Shown piece after piece: positions 7,351 through 18,409 of a stretch of 46,512 nt of DNA. The DNA is from an uncultured Gammaproteobacteria bacterium (lineage in GTDB: Bacteria > Pseudomonadota > Gammaproteobacteria > SZUA-229), in contig CBDULX010000001.1 in the NCBI GenBank assembly GCA_965368175.1, positions 1 to 46,512 of the forward strand, written 5' to 3'. How positions within the stretch are numbered: the stretch's first letter is position 1; each line of letters begins with the position of its first letter. The notes under the pieces were generated by a model. It worked only from the letters and a program-made list of their open reading frames with translations, searched no databases and had not been told where the DNA came from. A program made the position numbers and the translations under genes.

Positions 7351-8931
7351 ATGACTACTCAAAACATTCATGCCGATCGTATCCTTATTCTGGATTTTGG
7401 TTCTCAGTATACTCAGTTGATTGCGCGTCGCATCCGTGAAGCGGGTGTGTATTGTGAGCTTTATGGCTGGGATATGGATGTTGAGGTGCTTAAGGCGTTT
7501 AAACCTTCAGGCATTATCCTCTCCGGTGGCCCGGAGACGGTGACAGAAGAAGAATCGCCCGTTGCGCCGGCTATCGTATTTGAGCTGGGAGTACCGGTGC
7601 TGGGTATTTGCTACGGAATGCAGACCATGGCCGAACAGCTGGGTGGTAAGGTAGAGAGTGCCGATCACCATGAATATGGCTACGCACAGGTGCGCGCTCG
7701 TGGGCACACCCGGTTGCTGAAGGACATCGAAGACCACACCACCGAAGACGGTTATGGCCTGCTGGATGTGTGGATGTCTCACGGCGATCGTGTGGTGGAT
7801 ATGCCTGAGGGTTTCAAGCTCATGGCATCGACCGATTCTGCACCCATCGCGGGTATGGCCAATGAGGAAAAAGATTTTTACGGTGTGCAGTTTCACCCGG
7901 AAGTTACCCATACTCGACAGGGTTTGCGTATTATCCAGCGTTTTGTTCATGACATCTGTGGTTGCGGTAATTTGTGGACCGCCGACAACATTATCGATGA
8001 TTCTATCGAAACTATTCGCAAACAGGTGAGTAAAGAAGAAGTATTGCTGGGCCTGTCCGGAGGCGTCGATTCATCGGTCGTTGCCGCGCTATTGCACAAG
8101 GCCATTGGTGATCAACTGACCTGTGTATTTGTAGATAATGGCTTATTGCGCTATGGCGAAGGTGATCAGGTGATGGCGACCTTCGCCGAGCATATGGGTG
8201 TTAAGGTAATTCGGGTGGATGCCGAGCAACGATTCCTCGATGCGCTCAAGGGTGAAATTGACCCCGAGAAGAAACGCAAAATTATTGGCAATCTGTTTGT
8301 TGATATTTTTGAGGAACAGGCCAGTAAACTGGACAATGCAAAGTGGCTGGCCCAGGGTACGATTTATCCCGATGTGATTGAGTCTGCCGGTGCTAAAACC
8401 GGCAAGGCGCATCTAATCAAGTCCCACCATAATGTAGGTGGCCTGCCGGATTACATGAAACTGAACCTCTGTGAACCATTACGAGAATTGTTCAAAGATG
8501 AAGTACGCAAGCTGGGAGTGGAATTGGGCCTGCCTTATGACATGGTGTATCGCCACCCTTTTCCTGGCCCGGGTCTGGGTGTGCGCATTCTTGGTGAAGT
8601 TAAAAAAGAATACGCCGATATTTTACGTCTGGCCGACCATGTTTTTATAGAAGAGCTGCACAAGCATGAACTGTACGATAAGGTTTCCCAGGCCTTCACT
8701 GTATTCCTGCCTGTGAAATCAGTGGGCGTGACCGGTGACGGTCGCCGTTATCAGTATGTCGTAGCCCTGCGTGCCGTTGAAACCATCGATTTCATGACCG
8801 CCCGCTGGGCCCACTTGCCGTACGATTTTCTGGATCATGTATCACGCCGAATTGTGAATGAAGTGAACGGAATTTCCCGTGTGGTGTACGACATCACCGG
8901 CAAACCCCCGGGCACGATTGAGTGGGAATAA
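7351..8931 (+). CDS. guaA: GMP synthase (glutamine-hydrolysing)
   Basis: 526 aa. GATase domain (GICYGMQ), ATP-PPase P-loop SGGVDSSV, and the canonical C-terminus KPPGTIEWE*. Confidence 0.97.
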
Positions 8932-8937
8932 ATAATC

Positions 8938-9013
8938 TTGCCACAGAGACACAGAGGTCACTGAGGTTTTTATAATTTAATAATTTCTCTGGGTTCTCCG
9001 TGACTCTGTGGCG
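8938..9013. repeat. REP-like hairpin (TTGCCACAGAG family), probable guaA terminator
   Basis: TTGCCACAGAGACACAGAGGTCACTGAGG, an AT-rich loop, then CTCTGGGTTCTCCGTGACTCTGTGGCG. An identical copy lies at 16067-16142. Confidence 0.7.
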
Positions 9014-9028
9014 TGTTAATAATCAACA

Positions 9029-9103
9029 ATGGAAAATAACGACCAACACTGGATGCAGCAGGCCCTGGAACTGGCTGCCAGGGCTGAAGCCGAAGGCGAG
9101 GTT
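9029..9103 (+). pseudogene. 5' stub of tadA (first 25 codons) left at the island's left junction
   Basis: MENNDQHWMQQALELAARAEAEGEV is identical in protein to the start of intact tadA at 16158. Homology stops at 9103. Confidence 0.9.
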
Positions 9104-9419
9104 TCTCGAAATTTTCATAACCAATCAAGTTCTTGAATTCGCCTTCAATTAAATAGCCCTGCATCGATCGAGCAGAGTTTCAAAGGGTTCGATGTCGTCG
9201 AGAAACGAACCGTCGTCGACCACGTGCTGATGGAAATAGACCTGTACAGGCTAAAAAGCAGAATTATATGCAAGTGCCACCCAACCTCCTTCACTGTATT
9301 ATTGAGGATAAAAACAAGTCAACCGGATATATACCTGTAGATGAAAGTTTTGTTTTATAACGAGATCAATCCTGTCAGAATCCCCGGGCTTAAGAAAATG
9401 AAAATCTATATGGAAACGG

Positions 9420-12116
9420 ATGAGTTCTTTTGACTTAGGCCTGCTACCCTCAGGACATCTGCACGGCTTCCCAGTAACAGCGGATGGCGCTGCAGGTAAA
9501 GAGGCTCATATTGCCACCATCGGCAAGGCATTTGCACGTAGCGTGGGGGAAGGTTTGTTCACCCTTGCGGCCAGCAAAAACGGTACAGCTCTCTCCCCAG
9601 CATTGCAATATTGGCGCAATTTTGCCTGCAAATATCTGAGTGAACGCTGCCAGCTGACATCAGCAGATCCGCAGCGGCCTGATCTTCTCGAGCCGCTCAC
9701 AGATGCAGAAACCATGCCTCTGCTCATGAGTGTGCCACCCATGCGCGGAGCCGAGTATCTCTCTGCTGCGGTGCTGCAGGATATCCGCTCCTTGCTGGAT
9801 AGCTGGGTCTGTGAACAGATACAGGCTGTCGGCGGACTTGATGTTCTCCTAGCCAGGAGAGCGCCGCAATGGCATCAGGTGGGACGGGTCTGTTTTCATC
9901 TGGCGGAAAATAAAAGTGATCCGGATTACCCTTTTGCCTTCATGGCAACCTATGTTCCCGAACTTTCAGCGCAGGGACATATTCGCCATCAACCTCTCAG
10001 CCGCGCCTTACAGGAATATGCGGGTGCTAAAAACAAAAAGGCATTAATCCGCCTGCTTTCGCCTGTTCAACTCGCCGCCGAGTCCAGCGCAGTGGTTAAC
10101 GAGCTGGTTGATAGCGGCGACATCTATCATCCGTTGGCCTGGACACCCGGAGAGGCGTATGAGTTTCTCAAAGAAACACCGCTGTACGAGCAGAGTGGTG
10201 TTATCGTCCGGTTACCCAATTGGTGGAAAAAACGTAGCAGACCACGTGTCAGTATCACTATTGGTGGGAGTGCGCAAAAGAATTTCAATGCCGATGCTTT
10301 GCTGGATTTCAAAATGAGTATCGCCCTGGGCGATGAATCCCTCAGCAAAGCCGAGCTCAAGAAACTGATGGCGGAGGATAATGGTCTCGCTTTTATTAAG
10401 GGCCAGTGGGTTGAGGTGAATCAGGAGAAACTGATTGAAGCCATGGCTCACTGGAAAAAGGTGGAGTCTGAAATGGCGAGTGATGGGCTCACGTTTGCAC
10501 AGGGGATGCGCCTGCTGGCCGGAGCACCCGCCGATCTACGGGAGGATGTCCAGGAAGAGAGCAGAGAGTGGTCTTTTATTCAACCGGGGAAATGGCTGGC
10601 TTCACAGCTAGAGGTGTTGCGCTCACCGGCTCAAGTGAAGACCGTCAATCCGGGTAAAGCACTCAAAGCGACTCTTCGGCCCTATCAACAGGAGGGTGTG
10701 AACTGGCTGTGGTTACTCTCTCAGTTGGGATTAGGTGCCTGTCTGGCGGATGATATGGGGTTGGGGAAAACTATGCAGGTCATCTCGCTGCTGCTGGTTG
10801 TAAAAAAGATAGAAAAGCAAAACACGAGAAAACCCTCCCTGCTGGTGCTTCCTGCATCTCTTCTCGCCAACTGGCAAGTGGAACTGGAGCGTTTTGCCCC
10901 CTCACTGCGCTGCCTGTTTTTGCACAGCTCCCGGCTGAGCAAAAAAACGATGAATGGGTTGGCGGATGAAAGTGCCGTCCTGAAGAATATCGATCTGGTG
11001 TTGACCACTTATGGCACACTGATGCGTCAAAATTGGCTACAGGAGCAGCAGTGGCGACTGCTGGTACTGGATGAGGCCCAGGCGATCAAGAATCCGGCCG
11101 CCAGGCAGAGCAAAGCGGTCAAGAAACTCAATGCCGCATCCCGTATTACACTGACCGGTACGCCAGTGGAGAACCATTTATCGGATCTCTGGTCCCTGTT
11201 TGACTTTCTGAACCCCGGTTTGCTTGGAACCGCTAATCGGTTCAAAGGGTTTGTGAAATCACTCTCTGCGCGGGAGAGTGATCAATATGCACCATTACGC
11301 AATCTGGTGAATCCCTATATCCTGCGCCGTCTTAAAACCGACCGCTCAATCATCAGCGACCTGCCGGAGAAGACCGAAGTGTCCTCATACTGTGGTTTGA
11401 GTAAAGTCCAGGCGGCACAATATCAGCAGGCCGTTACAGAACTTGCAAAAGCCATTGAAAATCAGGATGGCATGAAACGGCGCGGTCTGGTGCTATCCTA
11501 CCTGTTACGCTTCAAACAGATTTGTAATCACCCGTCGCAACTGCTGGGTGATGATGTGTATGATCCGCAACAGAGTGGCAAATTTCGGCGTCTGGCCGAG
11601 CTTTGTGAAGAGATAGCCGAGCGCCAGGAGAAGCTTTTGGTCTTTACCCAGTTCCGTGAAATAATCGCTCCGTTGGCAAGCTTTCTGGCGCAACAATTTG
11701 GCCAGCCAGGCCTGGTGTTACACGGAGGTACTCCGGTCAAGCAACGGCAAAAACGGGTTGAGCAGTTCCAGGATGAAGAAGGGCCACCATTTTTTATTCT
11801 CTCCCTCAAGGCGGGAGGAACCGGCCTTAACCTGACACAGGCATCCCATGTAATCCATTTTGATCGTTGGTGGAACCCGGCTGTGGAAAACCAGGCCACA
11901 GACCGAGCCTTTCGCATCGGCCAGAAAAAAAACGTGCTGGTGCATAAATTTATCTGTCAGGGAACAGTAGAAGAGAAGATAGACGTCTTGATCAATGAGA
12001 AAACGGCTCTCGCCAATGATCTATTGGAAGGTGGTGCCAATACACTGCTGACAGAGATGGATAACGAGGCATTACTTAATCTGGTTTCACTCGACATTGA
12101 GAAGACACAAGTCTGA
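9420..12116 (+). CDS. SNF2/SWI2-family DEAD-like ATPase with a long bacterial-type N-terminal domain
   Basis: 898 aa. All helicase motifs are intact: I LADDMGLGKT, II DEAQAIKN, III LTGTPVEN, IV VFTQF, V LKAGGTGLNLT, VI HFDRWWNPAVENQATDRAFRIGQ. The ~430-aa N-terminal region (RVCFHLAE...PFAFMATY) resembles, from memory, the domain seen in SNF2 proteins partnered with SWIM proteins. Confidence 0.9.
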   Translation: MSSFDLGLLPSGHLHGFPVTADGAAGKEAHIATIGKAFARSVGEGLFTLAASKNGTALSPALQYWRNFACKYLSERCQLTSADPQRPDLLEPLTDAETMPLLMSVPPMRGAEYLSAAVLQDIRSLLDSWVCEQIQAVGGLDVLLARRAPQWHQVGRVCFHLAENKSDPDYPFAFMATYVPELSAQGHIRHQPLSRALQEYAGAKNKKALIRLLSPVQLAAESSAVVNELVDSGDIYHPLAWTPGEAYEFLKETPLYEQSGVIVRLPNWWKKRSRPRVSITIGGSAQKNFNADALLDFKMSIALGDESLSKAELKKLMAEDNGLAFIKGQWVEVNQEKLIEAMAHWKKVESEMASDGLTFAQGMRLLAGAPADLREDVQEESREWSFIQPGKWLASQLEVLRSPAQVKTVNPGKALKATLRPYQQEGVNWLWLLSQLGLGACLADDMGLGKTMQVISLLLVVKKIEKQNTRKPSLLVLPASLLANWQVELERFAPSLRCLFLHSSRLSKKTMNGLADESAVLKNIDLVLTTYGTLMRQNWLQEQQWRLLVLDEAQAIKNPAARQSKAVKKLNAASRITLTGTPVENHLSDLWSLFDFLNPGLLGTANRFKGFVKSLSARESDQYAPLRNLVNPYILRRLKTDRSIISDLPEKTEVSSYCGLSKVQAAQYQQAVTELAKAIENQDGMKRRGLVLSYLLRFKQICNHPSQLLGDDVYDPQQSGKFRRLAELCEEIAERQEKLLVFTQFREIIAPLASFLAQQFGQPGLVLHGGTPVKQRQKRVEQFQDEEGPPFFILSLKAGGTGLNLTQASHVIHFDRWWNPAVENQATDRAFRIGQKKNVLVHKFICQGTVEEKIDVLINEKTALANDLLEGGANTLLTEMDNEALLNLVSLDIEKTQV

Positions 12117-12137
12117 TAGAGAAGGGGGATAAATAAA

Positions 12138-13172
12138 ATGCATTATGGTGGATGGCCTCCATATGTGTCGGTCGCACAACGACGCGCCAGGGCAGCCAAA
12201 GGCATGAAAAAGCTGGGCAAGAAGGGCCTGGAGATTGAACCCATAGAGATTCAGGGACGTAAGATCGCTCGCACATTCTGGGGTGAGGCCTGGTGCAATC
12301 ATCTGGAAAAATTTAGCGATTATGAGAATCGCCTACCGCGGGGTCGAACCTATGTACGTAACGGTTCAGTGTGTCATCTTGCCATTTCAAAGGGAAAAAT
12401 CGAAGCCATTGTCAGTGGTTCGGAACTCTACAGAATCAACATTAATATCACCCCTCTGTCCATAAAGAATTGGAAAAACGTGCGCAAACAGTGTGCCGGA
12501 CAAATCGGTTCCATGCTGGAACTGTTGCAGGGGCGTTTTTCTGATAATGTAATGGAGATCGTAACCGATCAAAACAATGGGCTGTTTCCCAGGCCTGACG
12601 AAATAAAACTCGCCTGTGATTGTCCCGACTGGGCCGAAATGTGCAAACATATTGCCGCCGTCTTGTACGGTGTTGGTGCCAGGCTGGATCACCGGCCTGA
12701 ACTACTTTTTCTGCTGCGGAATGTTGATCATGAAGCGCTGATTGCAGCGGAGCTGGATATACAGTCAGCAACATCCAGAAAAGGGAAACGGCGGCGGCTG
12801 GCGGTAGCTGATCTTTCCTATGTGTTTGGTGTGGAGTTGGAAGAGTCCGTCAAACCCGGTCACAAAAATAGTACAGTCAGCAAAAAAACGGCCAGGAAGA
12901 GAAGTAAGAAGAAGACAGTTAAAAAGAAGATTGCCCTAAAGACGAAGAAAAAAGCATTTACACCGACAGCAACGGCAGTCACCAGGCTACGTAAGCGATT
13001 TGGGATGAACGCATCTCAGTTTGCAAAGTTGGTTGGTGTGAGTCCGCAGACGGTAAATAGCTGGGAAAACGGCAGTGGTAAGCTCAATCTCCGCCAACGT
13101 ACCACAGATGCGCTTACCCAGGCGGCTGAACTTACGCCGGAGCAGGCCATGAGAAAGTTAAAACGTAGCTGA
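12138..13172 (+). CDS. SWIM zinc-finger protein with a lysine-rich linker and a C-terminal XRE-type helix-turn-helix
   Basis: 344 aa. SWIM signature CDCPDWAEMCKH (CxCxnCxH). The N-terminal FWGEAWCNHLE...RLPRGRTYVRNGSV is typical of bacterial SWIM proteins. The linker is KKTARKRSKKKTVKKKIALKTKKK. The C-terminal LRKRFGMNASQFAKLVGVSPQTVNSWENGSGK is a classic XRE HTH. It starts 21 nt after the SNF2 stop, with a GGGGGA SD. Confidence 0.85.
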   Translation: MHYGGWPPYVSVAQRRARAAKGMKKLGKKGLEIEPIEIQGRKIARTFWGEAWCNHLEKFSDYENRLPRGRTYVRNGSVCHLAISKGKIEAIVSGSELYRININITPLSIKNWKNVRKQCAGQIGSMLELLQGRFSDNVMEIVTDQNNGLFPRPDEIKLACDCPDWAEMCKHIAAVLYGVGARLDHRPELLFLLRNVDHEALIAAELDIQSATSRKGKRRRLAVADLSYVFGVELEESVKPGHKNSTVSKKTARKRSKKKTVKKKIALKTKKKAFTPTATAVTRLRKRFGMNASQFAKLVGVSPQTVNSWENGSGKLNLRQRTTDALTQAAELTPEQAMRKLKRS

Positions 13173-13175
13173 ATT

Positions 13176-13248
13176 GTAGTAGCCCCGACTTGACCTGACC
13201 GTTACCGGTTTTGCGGAAGCGACTGTCCGGTCAAGTCGGGACTACTAC
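13176..13248 (+). terminator. long stem-loop just after the SWIM-HTH gene (20-bp stem, 33-nt loop)
   Basis: GTAGTAGCCCCGACTTGACC (13176-13195) pairs with GGTCAAGTCGGGACTACTAC (13229-13248) with one mismatch. It begins 4 nt after the stop codon. There is no U-tract, so it may be a structural or recombination site rather than a simple terminator. Confidence 0.45.
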
Positions 13249-13308
13249 ACATGAGTTTGTTACACATAATGTGATTTGTGAGGGTTGAGGCGAGGACTGG
13301 CTTCACCA

Positions 13309-13494
13309 CCACCCAGGTGGATTATCTCTGCCCGAAGGGGGTTGGTTTGAGGGTGGTCGATTTTATGTGAAGAGGGCCAAGGTCGCGAATGAACAATGAC
13401 AATGGTATTTTTCATGGTATTGACACTTGCGACCACCGTAAAACCCGCGCCACTACTGGCTTTTTGCGGCTTATTTACAATCGAATGGGAGTAG
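13309..13494 (+). repeat. internal island junction: a copy of the island right-arm sequence followed by a decayed guaA 3'-end
   Basis: 13309-13410 aligns at roughly three-quarters identity with 15826-15924 plus 15987-16004. This includes an exact 18-mer ACAATGACAATGGTATTT (13393-13410 = 15987-16004). Downstream, 13477-13494 reads ACA ATC GAA TGG GAG TAG = TIEWE*, the conserved GuaA C-terminus. Confidence 0.6.
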
Positions 13495-13755
13495 GGTTTT
13501 TTAATAAATTATTGTTTATTAAATGAAAAATGCTATGACTGAGAGTTTAAATCAAATGGTCAACGAGTTGGCACTTTGTCCTAGGACAAATCGTGCTGGA
13601 ACCCTGGATTTTATTAGGTGTAACAGCAGGAAACGTCAAGTAAGTGAGTTACCAATTGTCGAACTCAAGGTGCTGGGCGGGTAAGCCGCGACTGGATACA
13701 GCATTTATACTTCTATACATAAAAAAGGACAGTATATTGGTCATAAATAGCCCTT

Positions 13756-13850
13756 GTGACTGTTTTCGTGGTCATTCCGCTTGACATTTGTTTAAGGAAT
13801 GGCTATTAATATAGCCATAAAATAATTTAGTGACTGTTTTCGTGGTCATT
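13756..13850 (+). promoter_or_regulatory. hipBA promoter/operator region
   Basis: TTGACA (13781-13786), a 17-nt spacer, then TATTAA (13804-13809). It is flanked by two identical 21-bp repeats GTGACTGTTTTCGTGGTCATT (13756-13776 and 13830-13850). The -10 lies inside the dyad GGCTAT-taat-ATAGCC (13801-13816). Confidence 0.6.
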
Positions 13851-13864
13851 GTCAGGTGGGCCAG

Positions 13865-14197
13865 ATGGTGAAGGACAGAACATATTCGCGATATACGCGT
13901 GAGGCTGCGGCCTTGCTGGCCAAGCAGGTCCAGCTCGGACGCAAGCAGCATAAGTGGACCGAGCGTGAGCTTGCGGACCGGGCCGGCATCTCGCGGGCGA
14001 CGCTCCAGAAGATCGAAAAGGGTGACCTGAGCGTGGCCATCGGGCTTGTGTTCGAGGTGGCGGCCCTGGTGGGTGTGACCTTGTTCGATGAGGAGCGCAC
14101 CGCGCTTGCCGCTCACCTTGCCCGCACCGGTGACAAACTGGCCTTGTTACCGAGCGCCGTACGCAAGCGCAGAAAGACGGTGCATGATGATTTCTGA
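13865..14197 (+). CDS. hipB: XRE-family HTH antitoxin HipB
   Basis: HTH WTERELADRAGISRATLQKIEKGD. The stop overlaps the hipA start by 14 nt. The ATG at 13865 is preceded by AGGTGG (13854-13859). The track start at 13856 is an in-frame GTG. Confidence 0.85.
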   Translation: MVKDRTYSRYTREAAALLAKQVQLGRKQHKWTERELADRAGISRATLQKIEKGDLSVAIGLVFEVAALVGVTLFDEERTALAAHLARTGDKLALLPSAVRKRRKTVHDDF

Positions 14198-15488
14198 GGG
14201 ATCCTACAGCGAGGCCTTTGTCTGGGTGTGGTTGCCTGGTGAAGCTCAACCGATCGTGGCAGGCAGGCTGGCTGCCGAAGGCGATCAACTGATCTTCAAT
14301 TACGGTAAGAGCTATTTGGCTCGTGATAATGCCATTGCGCTCTATCATCCCGAGTTGCCCTTACAGGCCGGGCTTATTCCATTGCTTCCGGGTCTAAGCA
14401 TGCCTGCCTGCATCCGCGATGCCTCGCCGGATGCCTGGGGGCGGCGTATTATCATCAATAAAAAGTTCGGCCTGAAAGGCGCGAAGGCTGATGCAGGCCA
14501 GCTTGATGAGTTGACCTATTTGCTGGAGTCCGGCTCGGACCGTATCGGGGCTCTGGATTTTCAGCGTTCTGCCACCCACTATGTTCCGCGCGGATCGGTG
14601 AATGCTTCTCTAGATGAACTCGTGCAAGCCGCCGAGTTCATTGAGAAAGGCCTGCCGCTGAGTCCGGAGCTCGATCATGCTTTGCAACACGGTACTTCGC
14701 TCGGTGGTGCGCGGCCCAAGGCGCAGCTTGAAGACGGTGACAAGAAGTATATCGCGAAGTTTTCTTCGACGACTGATCTTTATAGCGTTGTAAAGGCTGA
14801 GTTCATCGCTATGCGCCTGGCGTCACAGGCCGGGCTTAACGTTGCGAGTGTGTCGCTGACCAGATCTTTGCACAAAGACGTTCTACTGATCGAGCGCTTT
14901 GACCGCGTGCATACCGGGGCCGGGTGGCAGCGCAAGATGATGGTCTCGGCGCTCACCATGTTCGTGCTCGATGAAATGATGGCGCGCTATGCCAGCTATG
15001 AAGACCTCGCTGAAATTATCCGTCACCGCTTTACTGATGCACCCGCCACGCTGCGGGAGCTCTACTCTAGGCTCGTCTTCAACATCCTCTGCGGCAATAC
15101 CGACGATCATGCTCGCAATCATGCCGCATTCTGGGATGGAGAAATACTTACGTTGACCCCAGCTTATGATATCTGTCCGCAAGGGCGTACAGGCAATGAA
15201 GCCTCGCAGGCCATGCTGATCGCCGGTAACAACCGAATGAGCTGCATATCCTCTTGCCTGGAGGCGGCGGCACAGTTTCTTTTGCCGCGCGCGGCGGCAA
15301 TCGATATCATCGAAAGCCAGCTCACCAGCATCATTGATCACTGGGATGCGATCTGCGATGAAGCGTCGCTCAGCGCTACCGATCGTGGGTTTCTCTGGGG
15401 GCGCCAATTCCTGAACCCCTATGCCTTTGATAACCTCAATGGCGATGCTACACACCTGAAGGCGCTTGCTGATAAGGCGAGCTTTTAG
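14184..15488 (+). CDS. hipA: type II toxin HipA-family serine/threonine kinase
   Basis: 434 aa from the ATG at 14184. HipA motifs are SLGGARPKA and the catalytic loop NTDDHARNHA. The N-terminal coupling-domain-like region is VWLPGEAQPIVAGRL. The track start at 14088 is an upstream extension overlapping hipB. Confidence 0.9.
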   Translation: MMISEGSYSEAFVWVWLPGEAQPIVAGRLAAEGDQLIFNYGKSYLARDNAIALYHPELPLQAGLIPLLPGLSMPACIRDASPDAWGRRIIINKKFGLKGAKADAGQLDELTYLLESGSDRIGALDFQRSATHYVPRGSVNASLDELVQAAEFIEKGLPLSPELDHALQHGTSLGGARPKAQLEDGDKKYIAKFSSTTDLYSVVKAEFIAMRLASQAGLNVASVSLTRSLHKDVLLIERFDRVHTGAGWQRKMMVSALTMFVLDEMMARYASYEDLAEIIRHRFTDAPATLRELYSRLVFNILCGNTDDHARNHAAFWDGEILTLTPAYDICPQGRTGNEASQAMLIAGNNRMSCISSCLEAAAQFLLPRAAAIDIIESQLTSIIDHWDAICDEASLSATDRGFLWGRQFLNPYAFDNLNGDATHLKALADKASF

Positions 15489-15825
15489 ATTTTGCTCATG
15501 GCTTGTGGGCATCAGCCGAAGCGGACGCTGCATAGGTGGTTTTTGTGGAGTTTCGGTTGATTCTTACCGCTCTTATCGAATCGGGGTAAAACCCAATTTT
15601 CCGGGCACATATGATAAAGGTCCTGGACTTTTCTGGATTCCTGGTTATAGCCTTTTCAATAAGTACTCAGTCATTGGACAGATCATGTCGTAACCCTGGA
15701 CTTTATTAAAAGAGAACCTCCGCTCATGATTACATGAATGTTAGCATTGCTTAGGGAGCTTGGAGGAAGACCGACACGAGCATTTGCAAGCGTTGTAAAT
15801 CTCGATACCGGTATGCTATATACTT

Positions 15826-16000
15826 CCACCCTGGCGGATTGAATCTCTACCCGAAGGGGATCGATTTGATAGGCGTTATCGGCTCGATATGATGAGGGCC
15901 AACGTCGTGAGTGGACAATGACAACAAGAAATTCCAATTTTAGTTGTTTGGTCATATAGCTAATTAACGTACTATATATCAATAACACAATGACAATGGT
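15826..16000 (+). repeat. right arm of the island (homologous to 13309-13410), interrupted by a short insertion
   Basis: See the alignment with 13309-13410. ACAATGACAA occurs at 15915-15924 and again at 15987-15996, bracketing 62 nt that are absent from the internal copy. Confidence 0.55.
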
Positions 16001-16060
16001 ATTTCCCGTGTGGTGTACGACATCACCGGCAAACCCCCGGGCACCATCGAGTGGGAATAA
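16001..16060 (+). pseudogene. 3' stub of guaA (last 19 codons + stop)
   Basis: Same amino-acid sequence as the end of intact guaA, with two synonymous differences (ACC/ACG, ATC/ATT). No upstream guaA sequence precedes it. Confidence 0.9.
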
Positions 16061-16232
16061 ATAATCTTGCCACAGAGACACAGAGGTCACTGAGGTTTTT
16101 ATAATTTAATAATTTCTCTGGGTTCTCCGTGACTCTGTGGCGTGTTAATAATCAACAATGGAAAATAACGACCAACACTGGATGCAGCAGGCCCTTGAGC
16201 TGGCTGCCAGGGCTGAAGCCGAGGGCGAAGTC
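16001..16232 (+). repeat. right copy of the 232-bp direct repeat (guaA 3' stub + spacer + start of intact tadA)
   Basis: Matches 8872-9103. The guaA stub at 16001-16060 encodes ...[19 protein letters not shown]. Confidence 0.95.
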
Positions 16233-16619
16233 CCGGTGGGTGCTGTCATCGTCAAAGATAATCAGCTTATTGCTGAAGGCTGGAACCATCCCATCCGGTC
16301 TAATGATCCTTCCGCCCATGCAGAAATGATGGCCATGCGTGCGGCAGGGCAAATTTTAAACAATTATCGATTAATGGATACCACACTGTATGTCACCCTT
16401 GAACCCTGTGCCATGTGTGTTGGGGCTATGGTTCATGCACGTATCAAGCGGCTGGTTTTTGGTGCCTATGATCCTAAAACAGGCGCTGCGGGTAGTGCCC
16501 TGGCGCTGATTCAGTCTGATGTACATAATCACAGAATTGAGGTTACAGCAGGTGTGATGGAGGCTGAGTGTCGGGACAGTTTGCAGGCATTTTTCAGGAA
16601 CAGGCGTAAAAAACAGTAA
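16158..16619 (+). CDS. tadA: tRNA-specific adenosine deaminase
   Basis: 153 aa. Deaminase zinc motifs HAEMMA and PCAMCVGA. Confidence 0.93.
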   Translation: MENNDQHWMQQALELAARAEAEGEVPVGAVIVKDNQLIAEGWNHPIRSNDPSAHAEMMAMRAAGQILNNYRLMDTTLYVTLEPCAMCVGAMVHARIKRLVFGAYDPKTGAAGSALALIQSDVHNHRIEVTAGVMEAECRDSLQAFFRNRRKKQ

Positions 16620-16628
16620 TTTTACAGC

Positions 16629-17417
16629 TCAGACTTTACTGGACAGGTTTACGATTTGCTTATTGCTAGAGGCAATGGTCCTTGCCATATCTTTTATTAG
16701 CTTCTCAGCGGTTGCAGGCCGGGTACAGAGCAGGTTGTGAAAGCGTTCGCTGGGTACAACCAGCACGGTGCAATGAGAGGCTGCCATCACACTGGCGGTT
16801 CTTAAAGTGCCTGTTAGAGCAGCAATGGCGCCAAATATTTCATCCGGTTTGATGGCACCAACAATGGTGCTGCCAACCTTAACTTCAGCTGAACCGGTGA
16901 TTAGTGTGTACACTTCGTTATCGCTATCGCCCTCGGTGATAATGGTATCCCCTTTGTTGTACTGACGGATTTCCGGGTGAAACTCAATGTCCTTCTGGAT
17001 ATGATCACTGAGTAAATTCTGATAACCCATGATCAGGTTCATTAAATACTTATTCCAGGTTTCTGTCCGTGTTTCATCATTGCGTATATGTTCTAATAAC
17101 TGAGGCCCATCATATTCATCAACTACAAGAGCAAAGTCAGTTTGGTAACGACTGGGTTTATCGAGGAGTAAACCATCAGCGCCGACCAGGTCTCCCGCTT
17201 CATGGTTAAAAGTGAGGTTGTCATGACAGGTTTCTTTCAGTATTCCATCCTGGATAAAGTACACAGATTGAGTGCTGGCAAGATCGATTTCAGTTTCTGA
17301 GGGTAATTGCAGCTTCCGTGTTTTTACCGGAGCCTGATCCAGAAAGCAATGGATTAGTGCCTGGTTGTCTTCCCAAAGTATTCCATGTTTGTCAAAGCCG
17401 GATATATTGGTAAACAT
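16629..17417 (-). CDS. cyclic-nucleotide-binding domain protein
   Basis: 262 aa. The C-terminal half has the cNMP-binding beta-barrel pattern GDTIITEGDSDNEVYTLITGSAEVKV...IFGAIAALTGTLRTASVMA. The N-terminal half looks like a degenerate second copy. Confidence 0.7.
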   Translation of the reverse strand: MFTNISGFDKHGILWEDNQALIHCFLDQAPVKTRKLQLPSETEIDLASTQSVYFIQDGILKETCHDNLTFNHEAGDLVGADGLLLDKPSRYQTDFALVVDEYDGPQLLEHIRNDETRTETWNKYLMNLIMGYQNLLSDHIQKDIEFHPEIRQYNKGDTIITEGDSDNEVYTLITGSAEVKVGSTIVGAIKPDEIFGAIAALTGTLRTASVMAASHCTVLVVPSERFHNLLCTRPATAEKLIKDMARTIASSNKQIVNLSSKV

Positions 17418-17620
17418 AAGGACCTTTTCGGATTAAAGTTTTTTAAGAATTGCCTGGGAGCATCAGATACTTGACCTGAGGCTCCCTTGTACTGATAGTA
17501 TGTAAAGCATCAATCCTGTGTATGAGACTGTTTTTTCGATCCTACAGTAAATTTATGAGTAGATTTGTGAATCAGTCAATATTGATATAATTTACAGTCC
17601 TGATTTTTATCGATACGATT

Positions 17621-18409
17621 ATGGCAAAAACGACTATTGATACCTGGGATGCTTATTTTTGCAGGCGTTCTGCCCTGTTTGAGTCGGTTCATGAAGTCTC
17701 GGGTGAATTTAGTACCTGTAAGGATTGGCCAACGCTAGAATTTATTAATCAACAATTTGAGCATAGACAGCATGGAATTCGGGCTGTGCCGCAGGCTGGG
17801 GTAGCCACCTGCTTTGAAGAACAATATGAACCGAGAATTTACCTGAAAGCGGAGTTGCAGACACGTAGTAACAACTGGCACGACTTTTTTAATGCCCTGG
17901 TGTGGTTGCAATTCAGCAATACCAAACAGGAACTGAATCGACTGCATTACTATGAGGCTTTACAAAGGGATGAAAAAAGTAACAGGAGCAAGATAGAAAA
18001 CGCCATTACTTTGTTTGATGAATGCGGCTGCATAATTGTCAGTTCTGATCCCGGACTGCTGGATATGATCCGTAATCATCAATGGTATGAACTGTTTGTG
18101 GAACGGCGTGAATCATTCTTCCACGATATTCAGTGCTATATATTTGGGCATGCAATATTTGAAAAGGCATTAAATCCCTATATTGGTATGACCTGTCAGG
18201 CTATATTGATTCATTCTGAGGAGTTGTTAATTGGCTCATTGGGTGATATCGATCAACAGCTTGCGCAACTCTGGTATCGGGGTGATATTCATAAGCCTGC
18301 GGATCTTTCCCCTTTTCCAGTCTTAGGGGTGCCAGGCTGGTATGAAGGAGAACAGTCTGAGGAGTTTTATCACAATGCCGATTATTTTCGTCCCATGCAT
18401 AAAAAATAA
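17621..18409 (+). CDS. hypothetical protein, DUF3025-like
   Basis: 262 aa. WHDFFNALVWLQF and FGHAIFEKALNPYIGMT resemble my recollection of the DUF3025 family. Not verifiable without a search. Confidence 0.55.
   Translation: MAKTTIDTWDAYFCRRSALFESVHEVSGEFSTCKDWPTLEFINQQFEHRQHGIRAVPQAGVATCFEEQYEPRIYLKAELQTRSNNWHDFFNALVWLQFSNTKQELNRLHYYEALQRDEKSNRSKIENAITLFDECGCIIVSSDPGLLDMIRNHQWYELFVERRESFFHDIQCYIFGHAIFEKALNPYIGMTCQAILIHSEELLIGSLGDIDQQLAQLWYRGDIHKPADLSPFPVLGVPGWYEGEQSEEFYHNADYFRPMHKK

Follow-up and report, generated by a model that had tools for sequence, protein, structure and literature searches.

A seam inside a guaA–tadA island, probably the right end of an integrase-less element of the GIsul2 family

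How did a sequence that resembles the 3' end of guaA come to lie inside a genomic island that is itself inserted beside guaA? The window analyzed here is a stretch of 46,512 nucleotides from a 3.1-Mb assembly (G000), and it contains the whole of such an island. An earlier note on this DNA had taken the internal site to be a decayed host guaA end, part of a fossil attR-like junction between two elements stacked at guaA. We compared the site with a relative from the same genus (G001), with further relatives in the same bacterial family (G011, G018, G019, and G022), and with a family-wide survey set of 97 genomes from 19 genera.

We identified the genes of the island from the ORF list and Pfam, found repeats with a repeat search, and computed a GC profile. 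All of the genes, repeat copies, cores, arms, and units described in the window are on the + strand. guaA (GMP synthase; 7351-8931 in the ORF list) is intact, is 95% identical to guaA from G001, and has an exact copy of the sequence GAGTGGGA, or core, in its last codons (8920-8927). The island is flanked by a 237-nt direct repeat (family D1, 97% identity between copies). The left copy (8866-9102) comprises the last 66 nt of guaA, a spacer with a hairpin, and the first ~74 nt of tadA, which remain as a stub. The right copy (15995-16231) comprises a guaA 3' stub with another exact core (16049-16056), the spacer, and the start of an intact tadA (Pfam). There are seven differences between the copies, every one at a third codon position. 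In G001, guaA, the spacer, and tadA are contiguous, and because this is the empty site, the 6.9-kb block and the duplication in the window represent an insertion.

The island itself (9103-15994) lies between the repeat copies and carries four genes, which encode an SNF2 ATPase (9420-12116), a protein with SWIM and HTH domains (12138-13172), HipB (13856-14197), and HipA (14088-15488). Pfam identified no recombinase gene within it. The cargo of module A (9103-13308) includes the first two genes and a long hairpin (13175-13249; inverted repeat I1, 28-nt arms, 89% complementary) that begins directly after the stop codon of the SWIM-HTH gene. The only match in an Rfam scan of 8700-16400 was psRNA2 for this hairpin, but at 21.5 bits against a cut-off of 65, it was below threshold and we rejected it. 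Module B (13495-15825) consists of a spacer and then the hipBA cargo, as delimited by Pfam, the GC profile, and repeat family D3; only the hipBA cargo is GC-rich. Imperfect direct repeats of ~46 nt (77%, family D3) bracket hipBA at 13573-13616 and 15665-15708. The similarity of module B to other hipBA operons is confined to about 13735-15490 and so ends inside these repeats, which means that hipBA may have been inserted into module B at a later time.

The internal site lies between the two modules. Its first part had been judged by eye to be about three-quarters identical, over 13309-13410, to the sequence at the right end of the island. BLASTN of 13250-13520 against 15780-16070 bears this out: 13309-13402 pairs with 15826-15924 (75/99 identities, 5 gap positions, E 3e-17). 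We refer to this repeat as the arm, and within the 3.1-Mb assembly it is restricted to these two places. The reported 18-mer ACAATGACAATGGTATTT is also present exactly, at 13393-13410 and 15987-16004. At the right end, the 18-mer continues, as had been claimed, into the 66-nt guaA 3' stub that starts the 237-nt repeat. At the internal site, the 84 nt after the 18-mer instead read ..TTVKPAPLLAFCGLFTIEWE followed by a stop (TAG at 13492-13494).

This stretch, which ends in TIEWE, had been said to echo the end of GuaA. It has three collinear blocks in common with guaA 3' ends (AAYGGWATTT; GAC..CACCGGCAAACCC; and ACNATYGAGTGGGA). Chained local alignment gave z = 5.7 against the guaA end of G000 itself, 7.1 against that of G001, and 6.1 against that of G011, and the score was reached by none of 3000 shuffles and by only 2 of 5000 random genomic 72-mers. 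The resemblance to guaA 3' ends is statistically real.

The echo is not, however, that of a host guaA end that decayed in place through an insertion and frame damage. When we searched 13290-13500 against the relatives, the part at 13402-13494 matched 21 places in G018, five in G019, and five in G022. A sequence model built from five copies (R1) and run on the fetched loci found 26 full-length copies, each 93-99 nt. The copy in the window (13397-13495) scores 99.4 bits with R1 and shares 82-83% identity with copies from G018 and G019; the 24 nt that appear as extra relative to guaA are also in its closest copies. We therefore treat the site as one member of a conserved ~98-nt unit, which is present in 15 of the 97 family genomes and in 7 of the 19 genera. 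These matches suggest that the window unit falls inside a unit family that spans genera. A distant host of higher GC content had been proposed as the source, but the window unit has a GC content of 45% and its nearest relatives (82-83%) are in the same bacterial family.

The geometry of the unit is fixed: a 5' block TGAACATGGTATTTTTCATGGTATT, a variable center, and a 3' block TTTACAATCGAGTGGGAGTGA (in longer form, GGCTYRTTTACAATCGAGTGGGAGTGA). In the window, two ATGGTAT motifs (13402-13408 and 13414-13420) face the same direction, directly repeated at a distance of 12 nt. They are followed by the guaA-like center and by a degenerate core, GAATGGGA, at 13483-13490, which equals GAGTGGGA at 7 of 8 positions. 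Among the other 24 full units, the core is GAGTGGGA in 21 and GAGAGGGA or GAGCGGGG in the remainder. In G018, G019, G011, and G022, copies lie downstream of guaA and on the same strand as guaA, and this is also the situation of the window unit. In these relatives, similar sequence follows the guaA stop and each unit's ..GAGTGGGAGTGA. In this downstream arm, the ATGGTAT motif recurs: twice in direct orientation, once inverted, and once more direct. The DNA between units consists of single operons, such as ParE/Phd pairs, DUF4143 ATPases, a TOTE conflict system, a Fic gene beside a Wadjet system, and hipBA pairs. In G018, at least 19 co-oriented units extend over more than 200 kb downstream of guaA (G018:C4:393845-398807 and G018:C10:15471-218661). 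The cargo that they delimit includes ParE/Phd pairs, DUF4143 ATPases, a TOTE system, and a hipBA pair. This array is integron-like but has GIsul2-type sites, and there is no integrase nearby.

The likeness to GIsul2 gives the unit a probable role. GIsul2 has three 19-bp att sites (attL, attLR, and attR) that share GAGTGGGA at the guaA 3' end; its integrase alone is enough for integration; and CR2-sul2, which has no integrase, was excised and was integrated between attLR and attR (PMC9376610). When a G018 unit was compared to plasmids by BLAST, we found a near-consensus unit about 200 nt upstream of sul2 in the Klebsiella plasmid NZ_CP023488. It has both conserved blocks and ends in ..TTTACAATAGAGTGGG, and it is the attR flank of GIsul2/CR2-sul2. 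This plasmid unit (6090-6130 of the fetched stretch) is cut within the core (..GAGTGGG / TATCGGAGACGAAGAAG.., with the slash at the cut) and continues into sequence from ahead of the GIsul2 int start, which looks like a deletion derivative that fused attR to the int leader.

The exact 19-mer ATGGTATTTTTCATGGTAT is found in at least 120 stretches of many Proteobacteria. We checked its position relative to guaA in 10 named genomes, and in 7 of them it is co-oriented with guaA and follows it at a distance of 73 nt to 22 kb. Advenella has a complete GIsul2 at guaA, together with repA/C, trbL, rcr2, and sul2. The Advenella integrase has 435 amino acids and the domains PF00589, Arm-DNA-bind_3, and Phage_int_M. 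The attL arm of this island contains ATGGTAT / ATACCAT motifs and starts with TTCCRCGTCTGGCAC.., like the arm that follows the G018 guaA. In Stenotrophomonas koreensis and Halioxenophilus, integrase-less IS91/CR-type units lie directly at guaA and have the ~98-nt unit at their end. Among the family relatives, G019:C16 has the unit, the core, and the P' arm, and then an int of GIsul2 type that begins there but is partial (67-87% identical; residues 19-216 only). In G000, we found no homolog of the GIsul2 integrase at E <= 1e-30. Tyrosine recombinases were counted by PF00589, which has just two matches in G000, with scores alongside the two top (XerC/XerD-level) matches of each relative. The unit plus P' arm had no match in complete E. 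coli genomes.

Given this kinship, we think it likely that 13309-13495, which comprises arm, P arm, and core, is the right end of a GIsul2-family element that has no integrase, and that it is fossilized between two stacked modules, A (SNF2/SWIM, 9103-13495) and B (hipBA, 13495-16060). By analogy with GIsul2, the internal site would be a seam between modules, comparable to attLR. The earlier idea of an attR-like junction thus holds in that the site is of att type, with an arm and then a guaA-end-like sequence, and fails in that the guaA part is a unit carried by the element rather than a decayed host end. The unit had also been assigned to module B as its attachment site; by analogy with CR2-sul2, the P arm and core would instead be the right end of module A. 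Each module closes with its own element end: arm and unit at 13309-13495, and arm and guaA-type end at 15826-16060. Because an att-type junction separates two individually bounded modules, the stacking of two elements at the guaA end is the best reading. The seam itself looks like an inactive scar, because its core is mutated to GAATGGGA, there is no integrase in the genome, and no P' arm with ATGGTAT motifs follows it (we recognized none in module B).

A simpler alternative is that there was never a second element: the right end of a single element (arm and guaA stub) was copied internally, and the inner copy decayed. That the two arms are paralogs, that the modules were never found separately, and that module B is missing a typical left arm would all fit such a local duplication. 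However, the inner site matches the neighboring guaA stub only in three short blocks, while its identity to the units of other genera (82-83%) is full-length and includes the 24 extra nucleotides, which argues for an imported member of the unit family and not for a decayed local copy. The arm, too, adjoins unrelated cargo in another genome. It occurs twice in G019 (G019:C7:4048-4165 and G019:C21:66795-66912), where it is 81-84% identical to the right-hand window arm (15826-15994) over 118 nt, and one of these copies adjoins a Wadjet system. Overall, we saw the arm four times (two in the window and two in G019), with different cargo each time. It is, on this comparison, a conserved end of the element that is not specific to any cargo. 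We consider local duplication unlikely, and we retain the reading of two stacked elements.

The G019 copies also show which of the two window arms is complete. The right-end arm of module B (15826-15994) includes 62 nt (15925-15986) that the right-end arm of module A (13309-13396) is missing and that could be taken for an insertion at the right end. Both G019 copies retain the 62 nt (alignments A6 and A10), so the right arm is the complete form and the internal copy is a deleted form. By this alignment, the 62 nt are ancestral and the internal arm lost them between two ACAATGACAA repeats. At G019:C21, the arm (with its 62 nt) and the unit are followed directly by tadA, which makes this copy the positional equivalent of the right end of the window island. 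This arrangement shows that guaA and tadA are an ancestral pair that was split by these islands. On the other side of the G019:C21 junction is an alpha-carboxysome operon (RuBisCO large and small subunits, CsoS2, CsoSCA, and shell proteins; 10300-17900 of the fetched locus). Since the operon adjoins the terminal arm-unit-tadA junction, it may belong to the guaA-tadA island region of G019 or border on it.

Are the modules independent elements? Genomes with only module A or only module B at guaA had been expected if two elements were stacked, and we found none among the 97 family genomes and 80 metagenome hipBA loci. The SWIM partner in module A has no homolog in the other 96 family genomes. Among the closest hipBA operons, the one at G022:C206 (77% match) has no unit or arm within ±1.5 kb, and neither do 80 metagenome hipBA loci (61-83% matches) in flanks of up to 6 kb. 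hipBA is found between units only as distant pairs (34%), in G018 and G022. The stacking claim therefore stands as to the separate boundaries of the modules, and the separate existence of the modules was not seen.

The proposed history rests on homology to GIsul2. Strand exchange at the 19-bp core that includes GAGTGGGA would be carried out by a tyrosine integrase of the P4 type whose N-terminal domain binds arm sites, and the ATGGTAT repeats found ~70-90 nt to each side of the core probably serve as those arm-type sites. Like CR2-sul2, elements without an integrase would be moved in trans. Repeated insertion at one core would stack elements downstream of guaA and would leave one P-arm-plus-core unit at each seam. 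Modules A and B were probably stacked in an earlier host. Both would then have arrived as one circle that carried a captured copy of the 237-nt guaA-tadA junction from a close relative, and the circle would have integrated at the core or by homologous recombination.

The outer junctions are where this scheme needs extra events (capture of host flank or RecA-dependent integration), because both depart from the canonical form. Module A is separated from the guaA core, on the left, by 171 nt of native spacer and tadA; at the other end, the arm passes through AATGGTATTT into authentic guaA sequence, and there is no unit. If the circle had captured a copy of the guaA-tadA junction, then both the flanking 237-nt repeat and the odd junctions would be explained. 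The left junction has a possible pseudo-core in tadA, in which GGTGGGTG resembles AGTGGGAG, but it is misaligned with the break point. The first bases of module A (9103-9130, TCGAAATTTTCATAACCAAT) resemble the post-core sequences of G022 and G011 (CAGAAATTTATAACCTAT and GGAATTTATAACATAT, respectively), a hint that the left end of module A may be a remnant P' arm joined to tadA at codon ~25. The right junction led us to consider a crossover at the 5' block AATGGTATT. We rejected this because it would join guaA out of frame to the unit and because it contradicts the published core; we keep it solely as a possible route for the capture of guaA sequence into the arm.

We weighed two other explanations. 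First, 13402-13494 could encode a 30-residue hydrophobic peptide (MVFFMVL...FTIEWE), such as a small membrane toxin, and the repeats would then be a gene family. In 17 of 25 full units (alignment A4), a frame of 30 codons runs unbroken from ATG to stop in spite of the variable center. But the frame is broken in a GIsul2-like subtype (six units, with stops at codon 12 or 16), the center has no conserved residues other than the guaA-like KP, and reading the sequence ahead of the ATG reveals no evident ribosome-binding site. The open frame could also be explained as a vestige of the guaA frame combined with strict spacing between the arm-type sites and the core. We regard a small gene as very unlikely.

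Second, and hardly credible, the unit could be the attC site of a chromosomal integron and the arrays of the relatives could be IntI-driven: the cassettes of roughly 1-4 kb, the toxin-antitoxin cargo, the ~100-nt repeats with conserved ends and variable centers, and the integron integrase (TIGR02249, 433-462 bits) encoded by all four array-bearing relatives are as expected, but single strands fold no better than shuffled sequences (z of -0.9 to +0.5 for eight strands), RNAalifold gives no consensus structure for the units, the unit ends are not inverted repeats and show no RYYYAAC / GTTRRRY boxes on reading, the units are homologous to the attR flank of GIsul2, and IntI is absent from G000. 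The intI genes are on other contigs, far from the arrays, and the G018 intI contig has no unit; for this reason we also rejected the relatives' integron integrases as the responsible enzyme. Their loci are G018:C8:575650-576657, the end of G011:C60, G019:C44, and G022:C62, and three of the four are at contig ends.

The reading as a GIsul2-family element end can be extended, more tentatively, to the relatives. It may be that the unit serves as a functional recombination site for an integron-like cassette platform, located at guaA, in uncultured Gammaproteobacteria of the sulfur-oxidizing type, in which a GIsul2-family integrase acting in trans would stack and shuffle integrase-less toxin-antitoxin and defense cassettes. 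The window island would then be a small dead offshoot that was moved as a block by way of its captured 237 nt of host flank.

What had been an anonymous decayed guaA end in an environmental genome is now tied to an experimentally characterized recombination system. In uncultured Gammaproteobacteria, toxin-antitoxin and defense modules are bounded by the same att architecture with which sul2 spreads among clinical bacteria. For annotation, the gain is that the guaA-tadA island can be described as a composite of two probable integrase-less modules with what looks like an inactive scar between them. The site itself is an ordinary case of a known process (GIsul2-type att), and the cassette arrays of the relatives are the more interesting lead.

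In tandem island arrays at tRNA and tmRNA genes, integrase-mediated accretion at one site leaves co-oriented copies of the gene's 3' end between islands. The window is similar in that one chromosomal site would have been used repeatedly, but its repeats are not displaced functional gene ends: they are borne by the element and exceed the matching part of guaA by ~27 nt. Integron cassettes offer another parallel, since G018 has long arrays, all in one orientation, in which the units delimit cassettes of a single operon each and toxin-antitoxin genes are common. Unlike attC sites, however, the units have no hairpin-forming structure, R/L boxes, or adjacent intI, and the recombinase would be a P4-like integrase that acts on double-stranded core sites. 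A further parallel is the guaA island of Aeromonas caviae, in whose attR core there are two CR2-sul2 units, according to the account of Shi et al. 2019 given in PMC9376610. As summarized there, this island also has tandem integrase-less units at guaA, each of which recreated the att core; the integrase-bearing island persists in A. caviae, whereas the window has scars only.

The closest system is GIsul2/CR2-sul2 itself, from which the window differs in several respects. Its cargo is SNF2/SWIM and hipBA instead of resistance genes; G000 has no int, alpA, rep, or transfer genes anywhere in the genome; the internal core is mutated; the unit is preceded by an extra arm of ~100-160 nt, seen only in the window and G019; and the island is bounded on the outside by a 237-nt duplication of host origin rather than by a 19-bp repeat. 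The likenesses concern the recombination sites. The target is the last codons of guaA, which carry the core GAGTGGGA; the P arm is homologous to the near-consensus unit upstream of sul2; the start of the P' arm after the core, TTCCRCGTCTGGCAC.., is common to G018 and the Advenella GIsul2; and, in both systems, an internal att site divides two sub-elements, one of which has no integrase and would be moved in trans.
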